Source: a virus
Strand: one strand, 5' to 3'
Virus record (IMG/VR): IMGVR_UViG_3300009826_000003
Coordinates: 2,081 to 66,080 of that record
DNA length: 64,000 nucleotides
Shown here: positions 2,875 through 24,361 of the stretch, piece by piece
Position numbering within the stretch: position 1 is the first letter of the stretch
How the letters are laid out: every line of letters starts with the position of its first letter
Notes under the pieces: model-generated
Told to the model about the DNA's origin: nothing
What the model saw: only the letters and a program-made list of their open reading frames with translations
The model's database searches: none
Program-made: the position numbers and the translations under genes

Positions 2875-4542
2875 ATGTTGAACCGCAACCTTTTACCAGG
2901 TCAGTATCAAATAGGCAATTTCGTATTTGGTGCTCACACGATGTTTCGCATTGAATCGTGCGACATTGGCGCGTATGAGTTGAATGTTCAAGACTATCAA
3001 CGTGGTTCGTCTGATGAATTAAGTTTTGGTGAGGACACACTTAAGCCAATGCCAATGACGTTGACTATCAACGCATTAAACAACTATGCGATGCCTCATG
3101 TTGGCGCGATTATGAAGGACTTTCGCGAATTGAATTTTGATAATGACCGGCAACCGGGCATCTTCGCGCGGGAATGGCGCGCGGATGAGACCCGCCATAA
3201 ATGGGGCGAATTGAAGCCATTAAAGATATGTCGTCCTAGAGATGGAACTGTGGTTAGAGTGTATGGCAGGCCAGGGAAATTGGCTGTGACTCCGCTTGGA
3301 AGGCCACCAAATAACCAGGCGCGCAAGATGATTGCGGAGTTTCGGAGGTCTGATACGTTGTACTACAGCGATTACGAATATATGCTTTCCACTAAGCCAA
3401 ATGAAATCAAAACCGTTGTGCGCAATGCGAATCACGACATGGGAGATGCGCCAAGTTGGTTGCGCCTCATACTAGTTGGGCCAATGACGCATCCAATCAT
3501 CCAATTAGGTTTTGTAACAATAGAATTGGATGCTACCATTGCTATTGGTTCTATGGTCGAAATCTCTAGCTATCCGTGGGCTAGGCGCGCGGTAGACCTT
3601 GATAGCGGAATCTCCTTGAATTCCAGGGTAACTCGACCATATCTAGACAAACTCTTGTTTGAGACTAATAGCAAAGTTGAATTCTCTTGGAACGCAAGCG
3701 GTTTGAAACCTAGCTTTGGAGATGTCGAAGAGGATTTTGGTGAGTATGATTTAGATATGCTAAAGGAGAAATGGCTTATTCATTATATGGGGCCAGGCCA
3801 GGGAGAAATAGCGCCGAAAATTCAAGTGCTGCCAGGACTTCCGCTGATCCATGCTGTATTAGCTTGGCACGATAGCGGCAACCGTTGGCGATTAGGGACC
3901 GCTATTCGCAAATTAAAGAAAACGATAAGTGACTGGCAAAAGGTCGGAATGCAAATTGGAATTGCGCCTGAGCCAAGTCTTTTCGAAGAGGAATGTGCAA
4001 ATCGAATCATAGGACGCAGCAACGCGGAAGGCACGCGGTATCACTATTGGGATATTCGCTATCCGAATTTCATTTTCGGAGTACATATTGATGGAACTGA
4101 TTACGAAATTAGTAAGACATTCAAAATCCCAAGAGTGCTAGCGGTTTTGGAGAACATCATCGACAATTTCAAAGGTCTATTTGGAAGGGGAGACCACGCT
4201 GGCGCTGGTTGGTATTGGGAAGCGGAATTTGGCAGTGGTGAAGACATCCACACTCATACGCTTTGGATCAATAAACATCGCGTTTGTGTATTTCGAAATG
4301 TGAATGGTTGGGGATACCTTGGGCCAGAGTATCGGCATTATGGATTTGGAATGAAAGCAACGCAAAGGCTTTTGGGCCAGTCAACACCTGGTCCTCTTAT
4401 TAGGTTTTGGGCCAGTGACAATTACCCTCCTAGCATTGCAGAGGAAATTCTAAGAGAAGCCGAAGCAGCAGCGGAAAAGGAATATGGGTTAATTAATTCT
4501 ATGTGCTATTTGTTGTGGAGGGACGCATGGCAAACCCTATAG
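2875..4542 (+). CDS. Minor tail protein (distal-tail-like, with insertion)
   Basis: First gene after TMP. Start moved to ATG 2875. Confidence 0.7.
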   Translation: MLNRNLLPGQYQIGNFVFGAHTMFRIESCDIGAYELNVQDYQRGSSDELSFGEDTLKPMPMTLTINALNNYAMPHVGAIMKDFRELNFDNDRQPGIFAREWRADETRHKWGELKPLKICRPRDGTVVRVYGRPGKLAVTPLGRPPNNQARKMIAEFRRSDTLYYSDYEYMLSTKPNEIKTVVRNANHDMGDAPSWLRLILVGPMTHPIIQLGFVTIELDATIAIGSMVEISSYPWARRAVDLDSGISLNSRVTRPYLDKLLFETNSKVEFSWNASGLKPSFGDVEEDFGEYDLDMLKEKWLIHYMGPGQGEIAPKIQVLPGLPLIHAVLAWHDSGNRWRLGTAIRKLKKTISDWQKVGMQIGIAPEPSLFEEECANRIIGRSNAEGTRYHYWDIRYPNFIFGVHIDGTDYEISKTFKIPRVLAVLENIIDNFKGLFGRGDHAGAGWYWEAEFGSGEDIHTHTLWINKHRVCVFRNVNGWGYLGPEYRHYGFGMKATQRLLGQSTPGPLIRFWASDNYPPSIAEEILREAEAAAEKEYGLINSMCYLLWRDAWQTL

Positions 4543-5711
4543 ACTATTATGATCGTTTTCGCTTTTGTATCGAAGACGTGCATGGCAACATTGTTGCCAG
4601 AGATGTTGTGGGACAAGAGGTTAAAATCAACCGCGCGCTTAGTGGTCCGTCCGAAATCAGCATGAAGCTGCATCCGAAAGAGCCTAGTATTCAACAACTT
4701 TCAGGCGCGGGACCAATTCAGTTGAAACCGTGGGGCCACTGGATACATGCCTTGAAATACAACCAATTTGGCGAAGAGGTGTTTATAGCGTCTTGTATCA
4801 TGGAACCAAGCGAAATAGAGCCAGAGACAGGTATATTGAATTTGCGCGCAAAGGGTTTCACCAACTATGCGAAAGGCATCCCCTGGCTACAGAATTGGAA
4901 TCCCATTGCTGTTGATCCTTTTGAAATAATGGATCGCATTTGGAAGCACATTCAGAGTTATCACAATGCCGCGCTTGGGGTTTCAGTGTATCCGGCATCA
5001 AGTGGAACACTTATGTTGCCGGGATGGAGCTTTAACAATGAGCAATTCATTCAGGACTTTTTCGCTATATTCATTCGCGCCTCTGATAAAACAGACTGTG
5101 GCGAATACATTGAAAAGCTGGCGCGCGACATCCCTTTCGATTATGTCGAAGAGAGTGGATGGAATGAAAATAGGACGGCAATTAAAAAGGGAATTCGATT
5201 AGGGTATCCAAGCGGCGGAACAAAGCAACATGGCCTTGCATTTCGGAGGGGAGAGAATGTCACTGTGGCCGCGCCGAAATTAGAGTCAGAAGTGGAATGG
5301 ATGTCTGACATCATTATCGACGGATTTTTCCCTGGAAAGACTTACAGCGCAACGATTTCCAACTATGACCCTGACCGATTCCGACGTGTGATGAACGAAA
5401 TGGATTTGAGAATTGATTCGAATGAGCGCGCAGCGGCATGGGCCAAAAGGAAATTGACACGAAGGCAATTCCCTTATCAATATGAATCTCTATTTATTGA
5501 CCCTTACCATCCGAATGCACCATTTGGGACATTTGACGTTGGCGACGAAATTCTAATTGAGGGCAATATGCCTTGGGTCGGAGAAGGGATAAAACAATGG
5601 CATCGAATAATGGGGATGTCTTGGGATGAAACGAAAAAGGATGGACGGTTAGGATTGGCAGTAATGGCAGAAGGTGCATTTAACTACGATCCGATTGTGT
5701 ATATAAAATGA
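4527..5711 (+). CDS. Minor tail protein (baseplate hub/Tal-like)
   Basis: Second gene after TMP, ~394 aa. Synteny only. Confidence 0.65.
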   Translation: MANPIDYYDRFRFCIEDVHGNIVARDVVGQEVKINRALSGPSEISMKLHPKEPSIQQLSGAGPIQLKPWGHWIHALKYNQFGEEVFIASCIMEPSEIEPETGILNLRAKGFTNYAKGIPWLQNWNPIAVDPFEIMDRIWKHIQSYHNAALGVSVYPASSGTLMLPGWSFNNEQFIQDFFAIFIRASDKTDCGEYIEKLARDIPFDYVEESGWNENRTAIKKGIRLGYPSGGTKQHGLAFRRGENVTVAAPKLESEVEWMSDIIIDGFFPGKTYSATISNYDPDRFRRVMNEMDLRIDSNERAAAWAKRKLTRRQFPYQYESLFIDPYHPNAPFGTFDVGDEILIEGNMPWVGEGIKQWHRIMGMSWDETKKDGRLGLAVMAEGAFNYDPIVYIK

Positions 5712-14881: not shown

Positions 14882-14946
14882 AAAAAAAAGCGCGCCAGGC
14901 GAAATCATCTCCGGGGAAACGAAATCGCTTGGCGCGCTTGGTTTTT
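14882..14946. terminator. Bidirectional intrinsic terminator
   Basis: A8 tract, AAGCGCGCCAGGCGA/TCGCTTGGCGCGCTT stem, then GGTTTTT; lies between convergent operons. Confidence 0.8.
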
Positions 14947-15142
14947 AGTGATTGTCGCAAATCCACTCTCTGCATTCTAGGAGCGTTCTGCCTGTGTATT
15001 CGATGATACCGAAATAGACCACGCGCCAAGCGATTTCGCCATTATGACGAATTCGGATAACGTCGCAACCTTCTACCATCCAGTGACCAGGCTTGACGCA
15101 TCTTTGCTCCAAACCTGCTAAGCCATAAGACTTTTCACTCAT
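14945..15142 (-). CDS. Small hypothetical protein (array gene)
   Basis: 65 aa, start directly after repeat RBS. Confidence 0.75.
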   Translation of the reverse strand: MSEKSYGLAGLEQRCVKPGHWMVEGCDVIRIRHNGEIAWRVVYFGIIEYTGRTLLECREWICDNH

Positions 15143-15218
15143 TCACTTTCCACCCTCTTCCTGTCCTAGTTGGACAACACCAAACAGGTTGTGCGCCAAC
15201 CTGTTTGATGCAATGCAA

Positions 15219-15452
15219 CTAGCCTCGCGCGTTACGCTCAGCTATAGCGCGATCTAGGCACGCTCCGTAATCACCTGGCACTCCGCACCAGTGACAAGGT
15301 GCTGGTTGTGCTAAGCGCTCCGCCTCCGTGCGAAGCTGATTAGCGGTCCAACTGCAATTGCCAGGGAAGGGATAACCGTATTCCTTTCCTAGCTCTTCCA
15401 GCAGGATAGCGGCCTGAATCATACGCTCTGGCAAGGCTTTTCGGTTACTCAT
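15219..15452 (-). CDS. Small hypothetical protein (array gene)
   Basis: 77 aa with C-terminal CxxC; TAG stop is the CTAG of repeat 1. Confidence 0.75.
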   Translation of the reverse strand: MSNRKALPERMIQAAILLEELGKEYGYPFPGNCSWTANQLRTEAERLAQPAPCHWCGVPGDYGACLDRAIAERNARG

Positions 15453-15454
15453 GG

Positions 15455-15706
15455 TTAAACTCCCTTCGAGTAATACCGAATGTTGGTGTGCTCAAACAAT
15501 TGTCGCAAGCCTAACTCCGAAAGTTCAAGAGTTAGAACAAGATTCGCGAACAGGTAGTCTTTGTCATAAAAGACATAAGACGTGTGAATGTCACACTTGG
15601 CCCTATTCACCAGATCGCGATTGATCCACTGAATCATCAACCCTTTGTTGGCATTCCGCGTGAACGGTGGAATGTCTTTAGGGTCAACCCTTTTCACTGT
15701 ATCCAT
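15455..15706 (-). CDS. Small hypothetical protein (array gene)
   Basis: 83 aa, start after repeat 2 RBS. Confidence 0.75.
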   Translation of the reverse strand: MDTVKRVDPKDIPPFTRNANKGLMIQWINRDLVNRAKCDIHTSYVFYDKDYLFANLVLTLELSELGLRQLFEHTNIRYYSKGV

Positions 15707-15780
15707 GATTCCATCCTCTCTTTCTGTCCCTAGTGGACAACGCCAAACCTGTTGGCTAGCAACAGGTTTGACGCAATCAA

Positions 15781-16065
15781 CTAGCGAACCGCATTCGCAG
15801 CTTTGAATTCGACTGCGTTGTTTGCGATTTCGTTTGCCTTCTGGTGTAAGTCATCCGGCAAACGTTGGCCCATCCGACCAAGCGCGGAAACTGCGAGGTC
15901 AATTGCACCTCTTAGCTTCCATCCAGACTGGCGAACTATGGCCTGTGGAGCGTAACTAGGCCGGTAATGAACCATGTTGTTACTGACACGATTGGCCAGC
16001 GCATTCAGTTCTGCCACAATAACTTTCGCGGCCTGCTCTTCGAATCCTTCTGGAATGTATACCAT
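15781..16065 (-). CDS. Small hypothetical protein (array gene)
   Basis: 94 aa, bounded exactly by repeats 2 and 3. Confidence 0.8.
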   Translation of the reverse strand: MVYIPEGFEEQAAKVIVAELNALANRVSNNMVHYRPSYAPQAIVRQSGWKLRGAIDLAVSALGRMGQRLPDDLHQKANEIANNAVEFKAANAVR

Positions 16066-16139
16066 TTTTCCATCCTCTTTTCTTGTCCTTAGCGGACAAC
16101 ACCAAACCCCTTGACTAGCAAGGGGTTTGATGCACTCAG

Positions 16140-16343
16140 CTAAGAACTAGCTTCACCTTCGGGCGAAACGCCAACGTACAGAGTCCTTTTCAGTGGTCCC
16201 TGTCCGCTGTGGTCGATTCCTCCGACCCAACCGGCAACCCAACCTTTCGGAAGGTCGAATGCCAAGTTGTAATCGCTTTCGCGAAATGCGACTTTGTAAC
16301 TGGCACAAAGCTTTTGGAGCGTTTCACGCTGTTTCGGATTCAT
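16140..16343 (-). CDS. Small hypothetical protein (array gene)
   Basis: MNPKQRETLQ..., 67 aa; GGAGG RBS and ATGA overlap; stop in repeat 3. Confidence 0.75.
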   Translation of the reverse strand: MNPKQRETLQKLCASYKVAFRESDYNLAFDLPKGWVAGWVGGIDHSGQGPLKRTLYVGVSPEGEASS

Positions 16344-16543
16344 ACCGATTTCACCTCCGCCTGTCCCAAACCACAAGCGCGCAAGAACCTTTCGCGGTCA
16401 AAGCGCGGATTGTCTGATTTGAATTTAGCGGCCAGTTGGTTAGCGATTGCTTCAATGGCTTTATTTGAGTCACTGAATTTCAAATCGCTTGCCAGCTTTA
16501 TGATTTGAGCAATTTGCTCGAAATCCCTTCTGGTAACTGCCAT
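16340..16543 (-). CDS. Small hypothetical protein (array gene)
   Basis: MAVTRRDFEQIA...DNPRFDRERFLRACG, 67 aa, after repeat 4 RBS. Confidence 0.8.
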   Translation of the reverse strand: MAVTRRDFEQIAQIIKLASDLKFSDSNKAIEAIANQLAAKFKSDNPRFDRERFLRACGLGQAEVKSV

Positions 16544-16632
16544 TTCAATCCATCCTCTCTTTCTGTCCCTAGTGGACAAGACGAAAACCCTTGCGAAACA
16601 AGGGTTTTCATCCAATCAACTAGTGATTTGTG

Positions 16633-16881
16633 TTAGCGGCAATCGTCCCGCAAAACAGGGTTGACATCAGGGACAAGTGACACAACGATTTTCGTTTCGA
16701 CGCGAAAACCTTTGGCCTTCACCTGTTCTAGATGATGAACCGCATTGCGCAAGTGTAATGCACTGGCGCGCTGGCGATCTCGAACATGAGTGAATCCTTC
16801 ACTCTCTGCCCTGTCCGCTTCGCAATCCAAAGCAACCGACAAATCGGTTGCGTTGATGTCGAATGCATATTGAACACTCAT
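16633..16881 (-). CDS. Small hypothetical protein (array gene)
   Basis: MSVQYAFD..., 82 aa, after repeat 5 RBS. Confidence 0.75.
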   Translation of the reverse strand: MSVQYAFDINATDLSVALDCEADRAESEGFTHVRDRQRASALHLRNAVHHLEQVKAKGFRVETKIVVSLVPDVNPVLRDDCR

Positions 16882-16954
16882 TTTTCCATCCTCTTTTCTT
16901 GTCCTAACGGACAACACGAAAAGCGTTCTGTATGAACGCTTTTCGTGCACTCCG

Positions 16955-17383
16955 TTAGGGAGTTAGTGCGCGATACCGACCCATTGCGACCCTACGCGCG
17001 TAACCCAATTTGATTAGCGTGTAGCATCTTTGGCCAGCAGCACTAGATGAAATATTCAAATGGCGTCCTAGTGCGTTAAGGTGAACGCCCACCTCGCAAT
17101 CATTCTCCGCGAGGTATTCCCAAGCGTCATACTGTGACCTGTTAAGCGCTCCATCGTGCGGAGTATGCACACCAGGCCGCGTACCCTTCGAAATGGGTTG
17201 TAACGCTTGCGGTTTCGGGTCATCCACTTCTAGCGTCACTCTCTGCCTACCCTGAAAAGGGTTGGCCTGTAACGCTATACGCTGCTCAGACTGTAACGCG
17301 CGGATAAAATCCAGCGCAGCTTGAGCTTCACCATTCGAAATATCAAGTGTCACGTCACCTTTGGCGTTGACGGTAACCTTCAA
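16955..17383 (-). CDS. Putative DNA-binding protein with C-terminal winged HTH
   Basis: LNRSQYDAWEYL...LGRHLNISSSAAGQRCYTLIKLGYARR; TTG start after GAAAGGGATGGAATA. Confidence 0.65.
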   Translation of the reverse strand: MKVTVNAKGDVTLDISNGEAQAALDFIRALQSEQRIALQANPFQGRQRVTLEVDDPKPQALQPISKGTRPGVHTPHDGALNRSQYDAWEYLAENDCEVGVHLNALGRHLNISSSAAGQRCYTLIKLGYARRVAMGRYRALTP

Positions 17384-17534
17384 TATTCCATCCCTTTCTA
17401 TCTGAAATCTGACCATCAGCATTGATGGCCTGTCCTAGCGGACAAGACCAAACCCCTTGACTAGCAAGGGGTTTGATCCAGAGCGCTAGGCTCTTACCCT
17501 GTCGATTCCTCAAATCGACTGTAGGAGAACAACT

Positions 17535-18677
17535 TTAGGACTTGGCCGCTACTAGCTCAGGCCGGTCTAGAACCTTCGCCAGTGCAATCACGCTCTTTTG
17601 GTCAACCTCTCCAAACTGACCGCGAATTGCCTTATCCAAGTTACGCTCCACACGATTACCCTTTACCGTCCGGTAGTGAGTTTCGTATGTGTTGAGCGCT
17701 TGCACTACACCTAGAGCAGTACCACGCCATTGTGCCGACATTGGATCACGATGGTAAGTGTGGTTAAGCACTTCCCTTTTGTTTTCCGCAATCGACATTT
17801 TGCGCTTGGTTGTCTCTGGGTCTTTAGCGTCGGGCATAGGGAAGATTTCATTCATCACCTTTACCCATTGCTGCGTAGTGACCGGAATAGATGCCAATTC
17901 GTGTAGCTCATCCATCATGGCATCGTTCGTCTGGTGAATGATCCTTAGCGCTTGCCGCACGTCTTTAATCCTGTTGTAATCCAAGGACTTTGACGTGTGA
18001 CGTGCCTTGTAAATTCGACCTGACGATTCCGCCTGGTGAAGCGCTGCGTTTCTGGTGTTATCGCAAACAACGTAAAGCGTTTGACCGCTGAAAGTTGTTG
18101 GGATAGAACCATCTAACGAAGTGCTTCCCATGATGTATGGCCAGAATTCCGCGCCTGTGGTCTCATCGTGCGAAGTCTCCGGTAAGGCTACTTGCACGAA
18201 AGCTTGAGCACCATTGCGAAGCAAACCAGCGCCAAGGATGGTCAGAGTATCGCCAATTACGTTGGCCTGCAATTGCATTAGCCATCTTTCGTAATTGTGA
18301 ATGCGGTACTCATCGCTGTGGTGGCCTAGCTCAAGGTGGTTGTCACTTCTAACAACACCTTGCATGTCAGGTACCACAACGATTTTGACCGGCTGACCTT
18401 GCTTGAAGTCTTCACCTCCAAGCGAAAGGTCTTGTGGCAGAAAGAAATTCGCATCCTTTCGTTCACAAGGCACCAGGTTTGCCGTAGGAACGGACATTGG
18501 CGTCCAAGGGAACAGACGCTCTTTAACCGTTTTGTAGGGTATTGGCCCTTCAAAGTGGTTGGACGGCAACCCAAGCCGCTCGCGCAGCTCTGGGTTATCG
18601 TGCCATGCCTTCGGTCGATTCGCGCAGTTCCCAACCAAGATAAACTCATTGAGCCACCTTGAGGTTTCCTGTGACAT
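17535..18677 (-). CDS. DUF932 / TIGR03299-like phage-plasmid protein
   Basis: VVRSD...Y.IHNY, AGLLRNGAQAFVQV, STSLDGS...VVCDNT...HT pattern. Start moved to ATG 18677. Confidence 0.7.
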   Translation of the reverse strand: MSQETSRWLNEFILVGNCANRPKAWHDNPELRERLGLPSNHFEGPIPYKTVKERLFPWTPMSVPTANLVPCERKDANFFLPQDLSLGGEDFKQGQPVKIVVVPDMQGVVRSDNHLELGHHSDEYRIHNYERWLMQLQANVIGDTLTILGAGLLRNGAQAFVQVALPETSHDETTGAEFWPYIMGSTSLDGSIPTTFSGQTLYVVCDNTRNAALHQAESSGRIYKARHTSKSLDYNRIKDVRQALRIIHQTNDAMMDELHELASIPVTTQQWVKVMNEIFPMPDAKDPETTKRKMSIAENKREVLNHTYHRDPMSAQWRGTALGVVQALNTYETHYRTVKGNRVERNLDKAIRGQFGEVDQKSVIALAKVLDRPELVAAKS

Positions 18678-18754
18678 ATCGTTATTCTCCAATCTATCTG
18701 TGCGCCAATGGAATTGGCGACTTTTCACGCGAACCGTGTAAGTGGCCGCGCTAG

Positions 18755-18930
18755 TGGCTGTAGCCAGATTCGAACTGGCCCAAGGCTTTTCGGCTCTTGT
18801 TCCTAATCCGCTCTTATTTGGCTTCTAAGCCTTCGGAGCGTCTGTCAGGTACTAAGACCCTTGGACGCTCCGAAAACGGCTCAGAAGCGCTCTCAGGCCG
18901 GTCTAATGGCCTGTTTGGAGCGGTACAGCC
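18755..18930 (-). ncRNA. 176-nt tRNA-like RNA with large structured insertion
   Basis: Acceptor GGCTGTA/TACAGCC, T-arm GCCAG-TTCGAAT-CTGGC, nested internal helices; fills the intergenic gap. Confidence 0.8.
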
Positions 18931-18939
18931 AGCAGCAGG

Positions 18940-19428
18940 TTACTGCTGCATGTTGAGATGACCTTTGGCAAGACGGAGAAGCGAATTGTATTCATCCCGC
19001 TTCTCTTTGGGAACTTCAATGTAGTTACCCATACCAACCACGAAACGCCAAAGACCTTCCAGCACAACAACTTTCTCTCTAGCTTTCATTTTCGGATAGC
19101 TAGGTGAACGGTTGTATGAACGTCGCGCGAAGCGCTCCGTTTCTTTGGCTTCCGCTATCACCAGGTCAATCAGTTGCCTTCTGCTGTAGGACTTTTCGAG
19201 TCCCTTAGCAATGTGGTTGTCCCACAAGGCTTTCCATGCTTCGATGTCATCGCTGTTCCAGAAAGAGCGATTCTGAAACTCGAATTTCGCAGGGGGAGTA
19301 ACGATTTCGTCGTTTTTCCGCCACGAATCAATGATGACGGCATCTGCGCCGATTGCGCGCGAGATGTCATAAATCGAAAGCATGACAACTTCCTTACCTG
19401 TTGACAGGTCAGTGATTTTCTCTGCCAT
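18940..19428 (-). CDS. Hypothetical protein, possible N-terminal HTH (array gene)
   Basis: 162 aa, LSIYDISRAIGADAVIIDSWR; start after repeat 7 RBS. Confidence 0.7.
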   Translation of the reverse strand: MAEKITDLSTGKEVVMLSIYDISRAIGADAVIIDSWRKNDEIVTPPAKFEFQNRSFWNSDDIEAWKALWDNHIAKGLEKSYSRRQLIDLVIAEAKETERFARRSYNRSPSYPKMKAREKVVVLEGLWRFVVGMGNYIEVPKEKRDEYNSLLRLAKGHLNMQQ

Positions 19429-19512
19429 GTTTCCATCCCTTTCTGTCCCTAGATCGTTCGTCTAGCGGACAACACCAAAAGCGTTAGCCTGTAACGCTTT
19501 TGATGCAATCAG

Positions 19513-19692
19513 CTAGCTCACAAGCTGCTCAGCAGCTTCTATGGCTTGCTTCTTATTGGCGTAAGAGCCATTCATCAACTGGTGGCCCTTCCAGATACGC
19601 CAGAACTTTTTAGGCGATTGCATAACGTGGATGTCGTGCTTATCGTCATGCATTCCGCCCCAATGGTTTTCACGCCAAACGATGTTACTCAT
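19513..19692 (-). CDS. 59-aa protein missed by ORF track
   Basis: MSNIVWRENHWGG...AIEAAEQLVS; ATGA overlap; stop is the CTAG of repeat 7. Confidence 0.75.
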   Translation of the reverse strand: MSNIVWRENHWGGMHDDKHDIHVMQSPKKFWRIWKGHQLMNGSYANKKQAIEAAEQLVS

Positions 19693-19895
19693 TTTTGCGA
19701 TCCTTCCTCTTGTATCTGCTCCAAGAGACCGCGCAGGCGCGAATTCTCTTCTTGCAGAGCGGAAATGGATTCAGCACGTTCTTTCGCCCAAACGTGTTGC
19801 ATCACTTCCATTTCGTCTGGGTCGCTTGGGTCGAAATCAACACCAGGTACCCAACCGTCACCTTGGACATATTGCCCATCTTCCAGATACGGCAT
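19689..19895 (-). CDS. Small acidic hypothetical protein (array gene)
   Basis: MPYLEDGQ..., 68 aa, after repeat 8 RBS. Confidence 0.75.
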   Translation of the reverse strand: MPYLEDGQYVQGDGWVPGVDFDPSDPDEMEVMQHVWAKERAESISALQEENSRLRGLLEQIQEEGSQK

Positions 19896-19968
19896 TTTTC
19901 CATCCTCTCTTTCTGTCCTAGCGGACAAGGCCAGATACGTTGGCGCGCAACGTATCTCGCCCAATGCG

Positions 19969-20202
19969 CTAGACCGGGAGAAGGTCTTGGTATTCGTTAT
20001 GGTTCAATTCACCAAAAACGAAGCGCTGCATGGCTTTTGCAACGTCTATAGGCTTTCCGCCCATTGGAACGTCGCGACCATGCCCAAGCTCCCAACCATA
20101 ACCAGGCTGTTTGTACCAGATTTGGACGCGACCCTGACTCTCTAGGTGCATCACCTGGTAACGCCAACCTTCGGCATTCTTGAATTCAAGAAGTAGCCTC
20201 AT
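19969..20202 (-). CDS. Small hypothetical protein (array gene)
   Basis: MRLLLEFK..., 77 aa; RBS GAAGGGGATGGAAACC; stop in repeat 8. Confidence 0.75.
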   Translation of the reverse strand: MRLLLEFKNAEGWRYQVMHLESQGRVQIWYKQPGYGWELGHGRDVPMGGKPIDVAKAMQRFVFGELNHNEYQDLLPV

Positions 20203-20294
20203 GGTTTCCATCCCCTTCCAGTGATCCAATTTGAATCACCAACTAGGCCAAGGGATTTCGGTTGTGTAAGCTCGAAATCCCTTGGCAACATTGG

Positions 20295-20453
20295 TTATTC
20301 AACATCATCTTGATGCAGAAGGCGAATATCGTTGCTGTAGACCTTGATTGCTGGAAATTGTCCATTGTCGCCAGCATCCCAAAGAGCAATGTATTCGATA
20401 CCGTCGAACTTGATACGGTCACCTTCACGCACTTTCATTGCAAGTGCCATCAT
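20295..20453 (-). CDS. Small hypothetical protein (array gene)
   Basis: MMALAMKVREGDRI..., 52 aa, after repeat 9 RBS. Confidence 0.7.
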   Translation of the reverse strand: MMALAMKVREGDRIKFDGIEYIALWDAGDNGQFPAIKVYSNDIRLLHQDDVE

Positions 20454-20526
20454 GTTTTCCACCCTCTTTCTTGTCCTAGCGGACAACGCGAAACCCTAAC
20501 GCAGAGTTAGGGTTTCACGCAATCAG

Positions 20527-20760
20527 CTAGAAATCGTTTCTAGCGCAGGCGATTTCGTAACCTTCCATGTCTCCGATTTCGTCATCGTAGACAGAAGGGT
20601 TATCGCGCCAGTTGTCGCGCAACCGCTGACCAAAAGCGTTGTATTGCGCGTTGCACTCAGGGCAGGAAACGTCACCCTGACCACGGTACCGGGAAACTAT
20701 TGCGCCGCAAGCGCATTCCCATTCCGAATGTCCATCATCGAACCTCTTGACGTTGGCCAT
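20527..20760 (-). CDS. Small zinc-ribbon protein (array gene)
   Basis: CACG...CPECNAQYNAFGQRLR, 77 aa, bounded exactly by repeats 9 and 10. Confidence 0.8.
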   Translation of the reverse strand: MANVKRFDDGHSEWECACGAIVSRYRGQGDVSCPECNAQYNAFGQRLRDNWRDNPSVYDDEIGDMEGYEIACARNDF

Positions 20761-20840
20761 TTTTCCATCCTCTCTTTCTGTCCTAGCGGACAACCCCAAA
20801 CCCCTTCTCGCGGAAGGGGTTTCGGGCAATGCGCTAGGCA

Positions 20841-21437
20841 TTACGCGGCAACGAAGGCATCGCCAACCTGCGCCAGATGAATTTGCTTGTTAGCTTCCAT
20901 CTGGAATTCGCGCAGGCGACCCTTGCCGACGTGCGCCAGGCGCATAGGGATAAGAGCAATTCCCTTGAGCACCTTGGCATTCCGCCGCGCTTCGAAAAGT
21001 TCGTTGTCAATCACCATGAGGTCACCGGCAACAACGTTCTTAGCTGCTTTCCGAAGGTTCATTTTTCCATCTCCTTTTGGTTGGTGGTTGCGACGTTGTG
21101 CCACAACCTTTTTCGGCTCAGCCTTCTTAGGCTGTTCCTTTGGCTCTTCCTTCTCTAGACCCTTGACGCATGGGAAAATGTCTACGTCAGAACCGTATTG
21201 CTTGCGTCCTTCCTCATCGCTCAAATCCCAATCGCTGTAGTGATCGCTGTAAATAGCGTCCACAATTTCATCAGCGTTTTTGGCATCCAAGATCCAAGGT
21301 GCTCCGCAGGCGCGATCTTCAAGCACTGCCCAATGGTATTTGGGTTGCTTGATGTCTCGACAGTCTGGCGCGTGGACGTGCATTGCGCCGCGACCGAAGT
21401 TGATTCCGTTGGGGCCAAGTATCCGAACCTTAACCAT
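20841..21437 (-). CDS. Hypothetical two-domain protein with internal in-frame start
   Basis: MVKVRILG..., 198 aa; internal GGAGATGGAAAA-ATG at 21062. Confidence 0.75.
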   Translation of the reverse strand: MVKVRILGPNGINFGRGAMHVHAPDCRDIKQPKYHWAVLEDRACGAPWILDAKNADEIVDAIYSDHYSDWDLSDEEGRKQYGSDVDIFPCVKGLEKEEPKEQPKKAEPKKVVAQRRNHQPKGDGKMNLRKAAKNVVAGDLMVIDNELFEARRNAKVLKGIALIPMRLAHVGKGRLREFQMEANKQIHLAQVGDAFVAA

Positions 21438-21564
21438 TTTTCCATCCCCTATCTTGTCCACTGTCTAGCGGACAACGCCAGAAGCGTTGATTACCAACGC
21501 TTCTCGCGCAATCAGCTAGCTTCGAATCATCACCAGGCCAGCGTAACCAAGGCCGCGATTCTCA

Positions 21565-21663
21565 TTAATCGTCATGGCACCTGCACAGGCACCACTCATG
21601 CGTGCAGTTCTCATGCCCGTTCAATTCACAGACACGCTGGTCAAACTCCCGTTGTTCGTTCAT
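21565..21663 (-). CDS. 32-aa Cys/His-rich peptide
   Basis: MNEQREFDQRVCELNGHENCTHEWCLCRCHDD, directly after repeat 12 RBS. Confidence 0.55.
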   Translation of the reverse strand: MNEQREFDQRVCELNGHENCTHEWCLCRCHDD

Positions 21664-21739
21664 TTTTCCATCCCCTATCTTGTCTGCTGTTCTAGCGGAC
21701 AACGCCGAAATCGTTACCGTGGTAACGATTTCCGCGCAA

Positions 21740-21985
21740 TCAGCTAAACATTTCCTTCTCTAGTTGGAACCTGTCATCTTCGGCTTGCTGCGCCAGCGCC
21801 AATCGGAGTACCGATTTCCAGTTAGCGATTCTTGCTGCCTCTTGCATGTAAGAGCCGCAACCGTGACCGTGCATTTTCTCCGAAAGTGCTTCCAGCACAA
21901 GCATTTTGCTTACCCTCTGTTCGTTCTTTCGAGCGTTAACAGCGATAAAGTTTGCCATGACCTTAGCAGCTTCCATCTTTTTCAT
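21740..21985 (-). CDS. Small hypothetical protein (first array gene)
   Basis: 81 aa, RBS GGGGATGGAAAA; TGA stop inside repeat 12. Confidence 0.75.
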   Translation of the reverse strand: MKKMEAAKVMANFIAVNARKNEQRVSKMLVLEALSEKMHGHGCGSYMQEAARIANWKSVLRLALAQQAEDDRFQLEKEMFS

Positions 21986-22040
21986 TTTTCCATCCCCTAT
22001 CTGTAGGTTGCCGAAATAACCCTTCCGGCAAGGGAAGTGA

Positions 22041-22119
22041 GAGCCAAGGCCGGAATCGAACCGGCACAGGTAGGGCGATCATCTTCGCGGTACCTGCTTT
22101 CATCAGCGGCCACCAGGCT
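22041..22119 (-). ncRNA. 79-nt tRNA-like RNA with aberrant D and anticodon arms
   Basis: Acceptor AGCCTGG/CTTGGCT (one mismatch), T-arm GCCGG-TTCGATT-CCGGC, central helix CAGGTA/TACCTG. Confidence 0.65.
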
Positions 22120-22522
22120 AGCTCATGTCTAAGGGCGAATCTCATTGCGCCATCAAGCTTTTCAGTTGCGCTCATTGCCTAGCTGGATTGACTAGTTTGT
22201 CAGAACAACTGAAAAGCCAGAAGGCGCAACGGATTTCGCAATCCGTTGCACCCTTTGAGGGATAGAATGGAAAATATTTTCATCTACTACCTAGGGTCCG
22301 TTTCCGCTTCGCCTCTTTCGTCATCTTGCAGCTAGTCCCTTCGCGCGCAACCGCTTTCATCAGGAAACTCCGAATAGTGTTGGCTAGCTCCGCATCTCGC
22401 GGACCTTCGGCTTTCGACTCTGTTCAGTTCTCAAATTTCACGCTGACCCTGGCTGGCGGGGGAAGTTCGTCGGTCCCGTTTGCGCGGGGGAGAGGTTCGC
22501 GCCTCTCCTAACTTCCAACTAC

Positions 22523-22552
22523 ACCGTATCACGTTTTTAGGCACCATGTCAA
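22523..22552 (-). promoter_or_regulatory. Sigma70/SigA-type leftward promoter for the array
   Basis: TTGACA-N18-TACGGT on the minus strand. Confidence 0.6.
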
Positions 22553-24296: not shown

Positions 24297-24361
24297 GCCG
24301 TTCCCTGGTGGCGCGCTACCCTGCTGTGGTAGCGTGAAAGGTTCAAATCCCTTGAGCGGCA
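24297..24361 (+). ncRNA. 65-nt D-armless tRNA-like RNA, anticodon-position GCT (Ser)
   Basis: Acceptor GCCGTTC/GAGCGGC, 9-bp stem with 7-nt loop CTGCTGT, T-arm AAAGG-TTCAAAT-CCCTT. Confidence 0.65.

Follow-up and report, generated by a model that had tools for sequence, protein, structure and literature searches.

In plant mitochondria, the ends of mRNAs are set by t-elements, which have been proposed or shown to direct cuts by RNase P and RNase Z, and one of which lies in the 5' leader of cox1 (PMC1920247). RNase P acts as a ruler on any stack of an acceptor and a T-stem (PMC4919913); it cleaves acceptor/T-stem hairpins, with a preference for G at the cleavage site, and it pairs with C74 (PMC11143913). 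The RNase Z of B. subtilis cuts CCA-less precursors after the discriminator, and precursors with long 5' leaders are poor substrates for it (PMC1874595). In M. smegmatis, RNase P cleaves the YrlA RNA, to which CCA is added (PMC4201824). In Cluster M mycobacteriophages, according to the summary of the CR3 and CR4 repeats in PMC7953290, genes have been inserted together with their repeat, and stem-loops lie upstream of the repeats.

The locus described here lies in a phage, ahead of an array of small genes. The window (the whole stretch of DNA analyzed, 64,000 nucleotides) is contained in a complete virus record of 71,237 nt, the sequence of which is found in termite-gut metagenomes; no RNA dataset was among those listed as containing the record. 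The nearest protein relatives of the window are the mycobacteriophages MrMiyagi, Fowlmouth, Cuke, Indlulamithi and Send513, and the closest relative is a Logan contig (L013) with the same divergent layout. An initial annotation, made from the letters of the window, had proposed a non-decoding tRNA-shaped RNA just before the first array gene. The proposal is supported by a match to a covarying family in related phages, and we conclude that 22124-22041 (minus strand) is a real yet divergent member of that family.

A family of tRNA top-half modules

A set of 53 module copies was extracted from five related phage genomes, namely MrMiyagi, Cuke, Indlulamithi, Send513 and an IMG/VR genome. The relatives carry 8-14 modules each in the spacers of the homologous small-gene array, with a T-arm in most spacers. 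The plan of the module consists of a 5-6-bp stem, a connector with GG at its positions 4-5, a T-arm, one spacer nucleotide, and the 3' strand of the stem; downstream of this strand follow mostly A-C (the family tail is ACN, or GCN in a few members), a short hairpin, and then the ribosome-binding site. Membership was defined by a stem of at least 5 bp, one spacer nucleotide and a 5-bp T-stem; the element has a 7-bp stem and C22048 as the spacer. When 34 short copies were aligned, 100% of the cells paired, with 131 double changes; it is to be noted that the copies were picked for pairing, so that the 100% is partly by construction and the diversity of the stem sequences is the informative part. 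The D-loop GG and the T-loop core were invariant in the alignment, and eight copies bear inserted arms of 22-67 nt.

Literature searches turned up no account of these modules in phages. The family is, we conclude, one of undescribed tRNA-mimic punctuation modules between most genes of an operon, missed by both ARAGORN and Rfam. The modules of the relatives probably mark the places where host tRNA-cutting enzymes cut the message. They are also probably ancestral to the clade, since the helicase and exonuclease trees (rooted at the midpoint) nest the phage within the module-bearing clade, with support of 92/93.

The module is also present in further viral contigs. Short modules occur on contigs L052, L057, L060, L048, L055 and L064, some of them in tandem pairs spaced by about 100 nt, and L060 has six of them with another ribosome-binding motif. 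Streptomyces phage Yara (L015, ~17283 and ~18083, minus strand) contains unannotated tRNA-like elements that have a D-arm, with the anticodon arm altered or absent, Barnyard (L017, ~12860, plus strand) has an element with an arm, and Send513 (L005, 14510-14970) has an unannotated GOLLD RNA (180 bits) with a T-arm-like insert.

Anatomy of the element and choice of register

The features of the locus are collected in Table 1.

Table 1 Features of the element and its surroundings, in window coordinates
Feature	Position	Strand	Description
Likely promoter	22523..22552	minus	TTGACA, 18 nt, TACGGT; found by eye, absent from the promoter scan list
Conserved leader end	22221..22274	minus	Complement of the ribosome-binding motif, then a 15-bp hairpin
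11-bp stem upstream of the element	22158..22216	minus	Analogue of the relatives' array-head stem with variable cargo
70-aa ORF	21963..22175	minus	Overlaps the element
Rival fold (predicted)	22038..22144	minus	22144-22134 with 22045-22038; hairpin 22127-22101 hides the 5' acceptor strand
Acceptor-like stem, 5' strand (family register)	22118..22124	minus	GAGCTAG; G at +1, U at -1
D-loop equivalent	22109..22118	minus	CCUGG, with GG at +4/+5 past the stem
A-rich linker	22098..22108	minus	
Inserted arm at the anticodon position	22066..22097	minus	7 bp, 2x2 internal loop, 4 bp, 6-nt loop
Canonical T-arm	22049..22065	minus	5/5 pairs, loop TTCGATT
Spacer C (22048) and acceptor-like stem, 3' strand	22041..22048	minus	
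3' tail	22037..22040	minus	UCAC; without CCA
Short hairpin between the element and the ribosome-binding site	22008..22031	minus	Present in every family module
Ribosome-binding motif of the array (conserved)	21986..22001	minus	
First array gene (gene 1)	21740..21985	minus	81 aa; no PHROGs family
Small-gene array	14945-21985	minus	Shared ribosome-binding motif before almost every gene

The perfect T-arm, the inner helix with its 4-bp extension around AGATGA, and the absence of an anticodon loop and of CCA were all found as initially annotated, on the minus strand. The loop of the T-arm conforms to TTCRANY and is closed by a G-C pair. The inner helix (22096-22091/22072-22067) reaches 7 bp if G22097-U22066 is added, and most pair probabilities of the inserted arm exceeded 0.85 in longer contexts. 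This arm was rejected as an anticodon arm, as it ends in a 6-nt loop past a 2x2 internal loop and not in a 7-nt loop.

The acceptor, in contrast, probably fits better when drawn five bases upstream of its annotated position, as judged by the family model and predicted folding. In the family register, 22124-22118 pairs with 22047-22041 in seven pairs with two G-U and no mismatch, whereas the annotated register has a U-U mismatch and a weaker fold; the isolated element folds at -29.8 versus -27.6 kcal/mol, the pair probability of the acceptor is 0.62 versus 0.35, and the family score is +24 versus -8 bits. CCTGG then occupies 22117-22113, with its GG at positions 4-5 following the 5' strand, as the family requires; the D-loop equivalent can also close a 3-bp mini-hairpin around UGGU. 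The sequence may alternatively be read with G22118 paired to C22048 and U22047 bulged, which would give a 12-bp stack. The second position of the tail is still C, as in the family, and the first is U and not a purine.

The element lies just before the first array gene, as had been stated: its end is 55 nt from the start codon of gene 1 (family range 30-81), and the module order is that of the family, i.e., element, hairpin, ribosome-binding motif and start. ARAGORN detected no tRNA or tmRNA at the element, and Rfam gave no relevant match for it, including RF00005, tmRNA and YrlA. By inspection, a hammerhead ribozyme (CUGAUGA at 22106) was rejected, there being no stem II followed by GAAA. The linker and the beginning of the arm (22106-22083) resemble the leader at 22363-22339 on the minus strand over 25 nt, a likeness noticed post hoc and reached in 5 of 1000 shuffles; it is possibly a local duplication.

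Significance of the match and predicted folding

On its own, a perfect T-arm would turn up 0.24 times per shuffled genome by chance, which is insufficient, and further evidence was therefore required. The isolated fold of the element is not unusual (z of -1.5 to -1.7). A family rule and a log-odds model were learned from the copies of the relatives. The full rule (stem, NNYGG, T-arm, one spacer nucleotide, stem) has a chance expectation of 0.003 per shuffled genome and is satisfied once in the actual genome, by 22124-22041. The log-odds score of the element is 24 bits, as against a maximum of 11.4 in 25 shuffled genomes; the 53 family members score 32-54 bits, placing the element below every one of them. 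Its departures from the family consist of the two G-U pairs, C in place of A at position 1 of the connector, and a U-C in place of an A-C tail. A covariance model built on the short members, which is unable to absorb a 40-nt insert, found the T-arm alone at the element (E 0.18, the top match in the window); in most of the long-armed members, likewise, it sees the T-arm only.

With 30-60 nt of flanking sequence, the predicted probability of the acceptor stem falls to about 0. With the same flanks the family members have medians of 0.96 and 0.85, although 7 of 53 and 16 of 53, respectively, also lie below 0.15. The rival fold is predicted at -42.0 versus -34.6 kcal/mol, i.e., 7.4 kcal/mol more stable, in a calculation that omits the elbow contacts and in which some true members act alike.

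Leader, promoter and array

The initial annotation had placed the element at the head of the array transcript. It does precede the array; however, the term is loose, as the likely promoter lies upstream of a leader of about 400 nt. The conserved end of this leader is able to pair with the ribosome-binding motifs of the array (-15 to -18 kcal/mol) and is conserved in 6 of 6 relatives examined, with a hairpin after it in every case; from the predicted pairing, this sequence may control the translation of many array genes, as a phage leader or as a small RNA. The complementary sequence is located at 22274-22257 (minus strand) in the window, at ~2685-2701 in L002 and ~2940-2955 in L003, and also in L004, L005, L011 and L013.

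A structured leader RNA is common to Cuke, MrMiyagi, Fowlmouth and Send513, and is looser in Indlulamithi and in genome G002; it was located at 2440-2600 of L002, 2690-2850 of L003 and 790-950 of L005, and also in L004 and L011. This conserved RNA has no Rfam match, and the leader of the window (22390-22340) retains just short words of it. At the head of the array, a long inverted repeat with variable cargo is seen in L014 (~3200-3500), in the window (22216-22158) and in L013 (3150-3036); the cargo is a whole gene in Fowlmouth, ~70 nt in MrMiyagi, and almost none in Cuke and Send513. By analogy, this repeat resembles an RNase III processing stem.

Most spacers of the phage's array hold a different, long hairpin repeat, and T-arm elements are only two, versus the 8-14 in relatives; the repeat pattern found no matches in viral contigs. 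For the 81-aa gene 1, tblastn gave no convincing match in the relatives that were retrieved, PHROGs offered no family for the proteins neighboring the element, and scans for related loci with the DUF932-like and 276-aa proteins returned no matches. All four sequencing runs contain one extra base at 21662, so an assembly error of 1 nt probably affects the window where array gene 2 starts.

The site and its siblings in relatives

The full module before gene 1 is absent in every relative examined, including the closest one, whose leader can hardly be aligned any longer with the one around the element; no T-arm was found in the sequenced part of that relative's array. In MrMiyagi, a T-loop-like word in the head stem was considered as an orthologue and left uncounted, as it is poorly paired. 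The named phages have no relatives of the leader at the DNA level. A pattern scan of metagenomes gave 29 matches, all of them real tRNAs or chance, with no orthologue among them; the tRNAs include tRNA-Sec-like ones with a GCC-UGGU-GGC loop, the same as in the element. Over 21999-22265, the contigs from four termite-gut DNA runs, two of which may be the source of this DNA, are free of variants, because of which covariation at the element itself is uninformative. Covariation, which had been suggested as a check, is present in the family, but no relative conserves the stems at this position. Because gene 1 differs between the phage and its closest relative, the element may have traveled with the 81-aa gene as a cassette, comparable to the Cluster M genes inserted with their repeats (PMC7953290).

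Two more T-arm elements lie in the window, at 18930-18755 (minus strand) and 24297-24361 (plus strand). The latter also has the CCTGG connector; in the closest relative (L013, ~5381-5485), the element at the corresponding position has the same top half with an unrelated 75-nt interior, which disfavors reading its loop as a serine anticodon. Before the DUF932-like gene, the closest relative (~345-277, minus strand) has kept the acceptor-like stem and the GG, and the T-loop is replaced. The insert of the window's element before this gene (18895-18855) shares a stretch with 22850-22815 (minus strand), a gene-free region upstream of the promoter.

Proposed function and alternatives

By analogy, we favor the reading that the element would be a t-element-like signal at which RNase P makes a 5' cut, with RNase Z perhaps acting next, and assign it a rough probability of 0.45. 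The acceptor-like stem would stack on the T-arm and the D-loop GG would pair with the T-loop; host RNase P would measure the stack and cut before G22124. Such a cut would free the ~400-nt leader RNA, with its sequence complementary to the ribosome-binding sites of the array, from the mRNA, and would leave the gene 1 message with a base-paired, tRNA-like 5' end; separation of the leader could matter because its conserved end can pair with the ribosome-binding motifs. RNase Z may then cut after U22040, releasing an 84-nt RNA. The 5' cut is placed first because of the G+1 and C74 features and the A-C tail of the family, and RNase P would precede RNase Z because the latter is poor on long 5' leaders. 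The 3'-end processing originally suggested is therefore one half of a plausible route, the features pointing first to the RNase P cut. The copy itself would probably have arrived with, or been left before, the 81-aa gene as a cassette.

The main rival to the processing-signal reading, possible yet doubtful in our estimate, is that the copy is a decaying relic that no longer directs cleavage, the tRNA-like punctuation having been replaced by long irregular hairpins, possibly RNase III sites. The small number of T-arm elements left in the array agrees with this, as do the score under the family range, the lost tail, the dominance of the rival fold, and the lack of T-arms in the closest relative as far as its array was sequenced, given that the trees suggest ancestral modules. 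Nonetheless, the T-arm, the GG, the 7-bp stem and the inner arm are all intact together despite the divergence of the leader, and an empty site in the relatives suits a gain as much as a remnant. A further alternative is an uncut, two-state element, in which the tRNA-like state and the 22144-22038 junction form a folding switch, or a nuclease roadblock, that tunes gene 1. The two states are mutually exclusive, both keep the T-arm and inner arm and expose the UGGU loop, and the rival-state stem is followed by A-C-U, resembling the family tail; however, the rival state has ~15 nt from the T-loop to the stem end and is unseen in relatives, and the predicted accessibility of the ribosome-binding site (0.5-0.7) changes little with the start of the RNA, so that we regard such a switch as improbable.

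That the released small RNA is itself the product, a tRNA-elbow decoy titrating tRNA-binding defense nucleases, modifying enzymes or sensors, appears quite improbable. Each spacer has a single copy, placed at a constant distance from the next start codon, which fits a role in cis; the element has no anticodon loop to lure anticodon nucleases, and no Ro60-like partner was found among the few window proteins tested, even though the elbow and acceptor surface are retained in many copies in an early accessory-gene operon, and bacterial Y RNAs are tRNA mimics that function as free RNAs (PMC4201824). Finally, the region could code for the 70-aa protein, or its shape could be due to chance, either of which we hold to be highly improbable. 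The frame is open over 21963-22175 and is listed as a called gene in a protein collection, and the z of the isolated fold is only about -1.6; the full family rule is nonetheless expected a mere 0.003 times per genome. Searches of 5.8 billion clustered proteins and of the named phages found no homologue of the ORF, which lacks the array's ribosome-binding motif, traverses the ribosome-binding site of gene 1 and overlaps its start; in the closest relative, the frame is closed. The ORF is probably spurious on these sequence grounds, and conservation of this protein in place of the stems, which the initial annotation had named as a refutation, was not observed.

Should RNase P cut the modules, phage operons would join mitochondria, the best-known case, as places where mRNA is punctuated in tRNA style. 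A broader proposal, namely that modules cut by host RNase P serve as mitochondrial-style punctuation in the early operon of this actinophage clade, that the present lineage is midway in exchanging them for hairpins, and that this copy is a cut gated by its conformation, releasing a conserved leader RNA that can pair with the ribosome-binding sites of the array, is rather unlikely when taken as a whole. The element is less important than the family, being divergent, confined to one uncultured phage, and a copy that may be decaying; its value is that it shows that the module can accommodate large inserts and can exist alongside a second type of punctuation. The family, in turn, is present in cultured M. 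smegmatis phages (Cuke, Fowlmouth, MrMiyagi, Send513, Indlulamithi) and is testable at once.

Comparison with known systems

The element shares with plant mitochondrial t-elements a non-decoding tRNA-like fold with a conserved T-arm, situated beside an mRNA (PMC1920247). The defining traits of a t-element (tRNA-like, with a T-arm, non-decoding, and flanking an mRNA) are thus seen here in sequence and predicted fold; the difference is that the element belongs to the operon of a phage with a bacterial host, an operon in which a module is repeated together with a hairpin and a ribosome-binding site. With bacterial tRNA (RF00005) it shares the T-arm, the D-loop GG, an acceptor/T stack of ~12 bp and the G+1, and differs in having no normal D-stem, anticodon loop, CCA, or ARAGORN or Rfam match. 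YrlA has a tRNA-mimicking domain as well (PMC4201824), but is permuted, with a looped acceptor stem, has a Ro60-binding stem and lies beside the Ro60 gene, whereas the element is unpermuted and has no Rfam match to it. The CR3/CR4 repeats of Cluster M mycobacteriophages are similar in being a repeated structured module before small genes, and differ in that the summary in PMC7953290 describes no tRNA-like T-arm. A tmRNA was rejected, as the element is 84 nt long, lacks CCA, and has no ARAGORN or Rfam match to this class.

In the early mRNAs of T7 and SPO1/SP82, RNase III punctuates the transcript at long hairpins in the spacers. The common ground is an early small-gene transcript with structured spacers, which in those phages are cut by a host nuclease. 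The element differs from the T7, SPO1 and SP82 signals in being tRNA-shaped, whereas the other spacers of this phage resemble their long hairpins.
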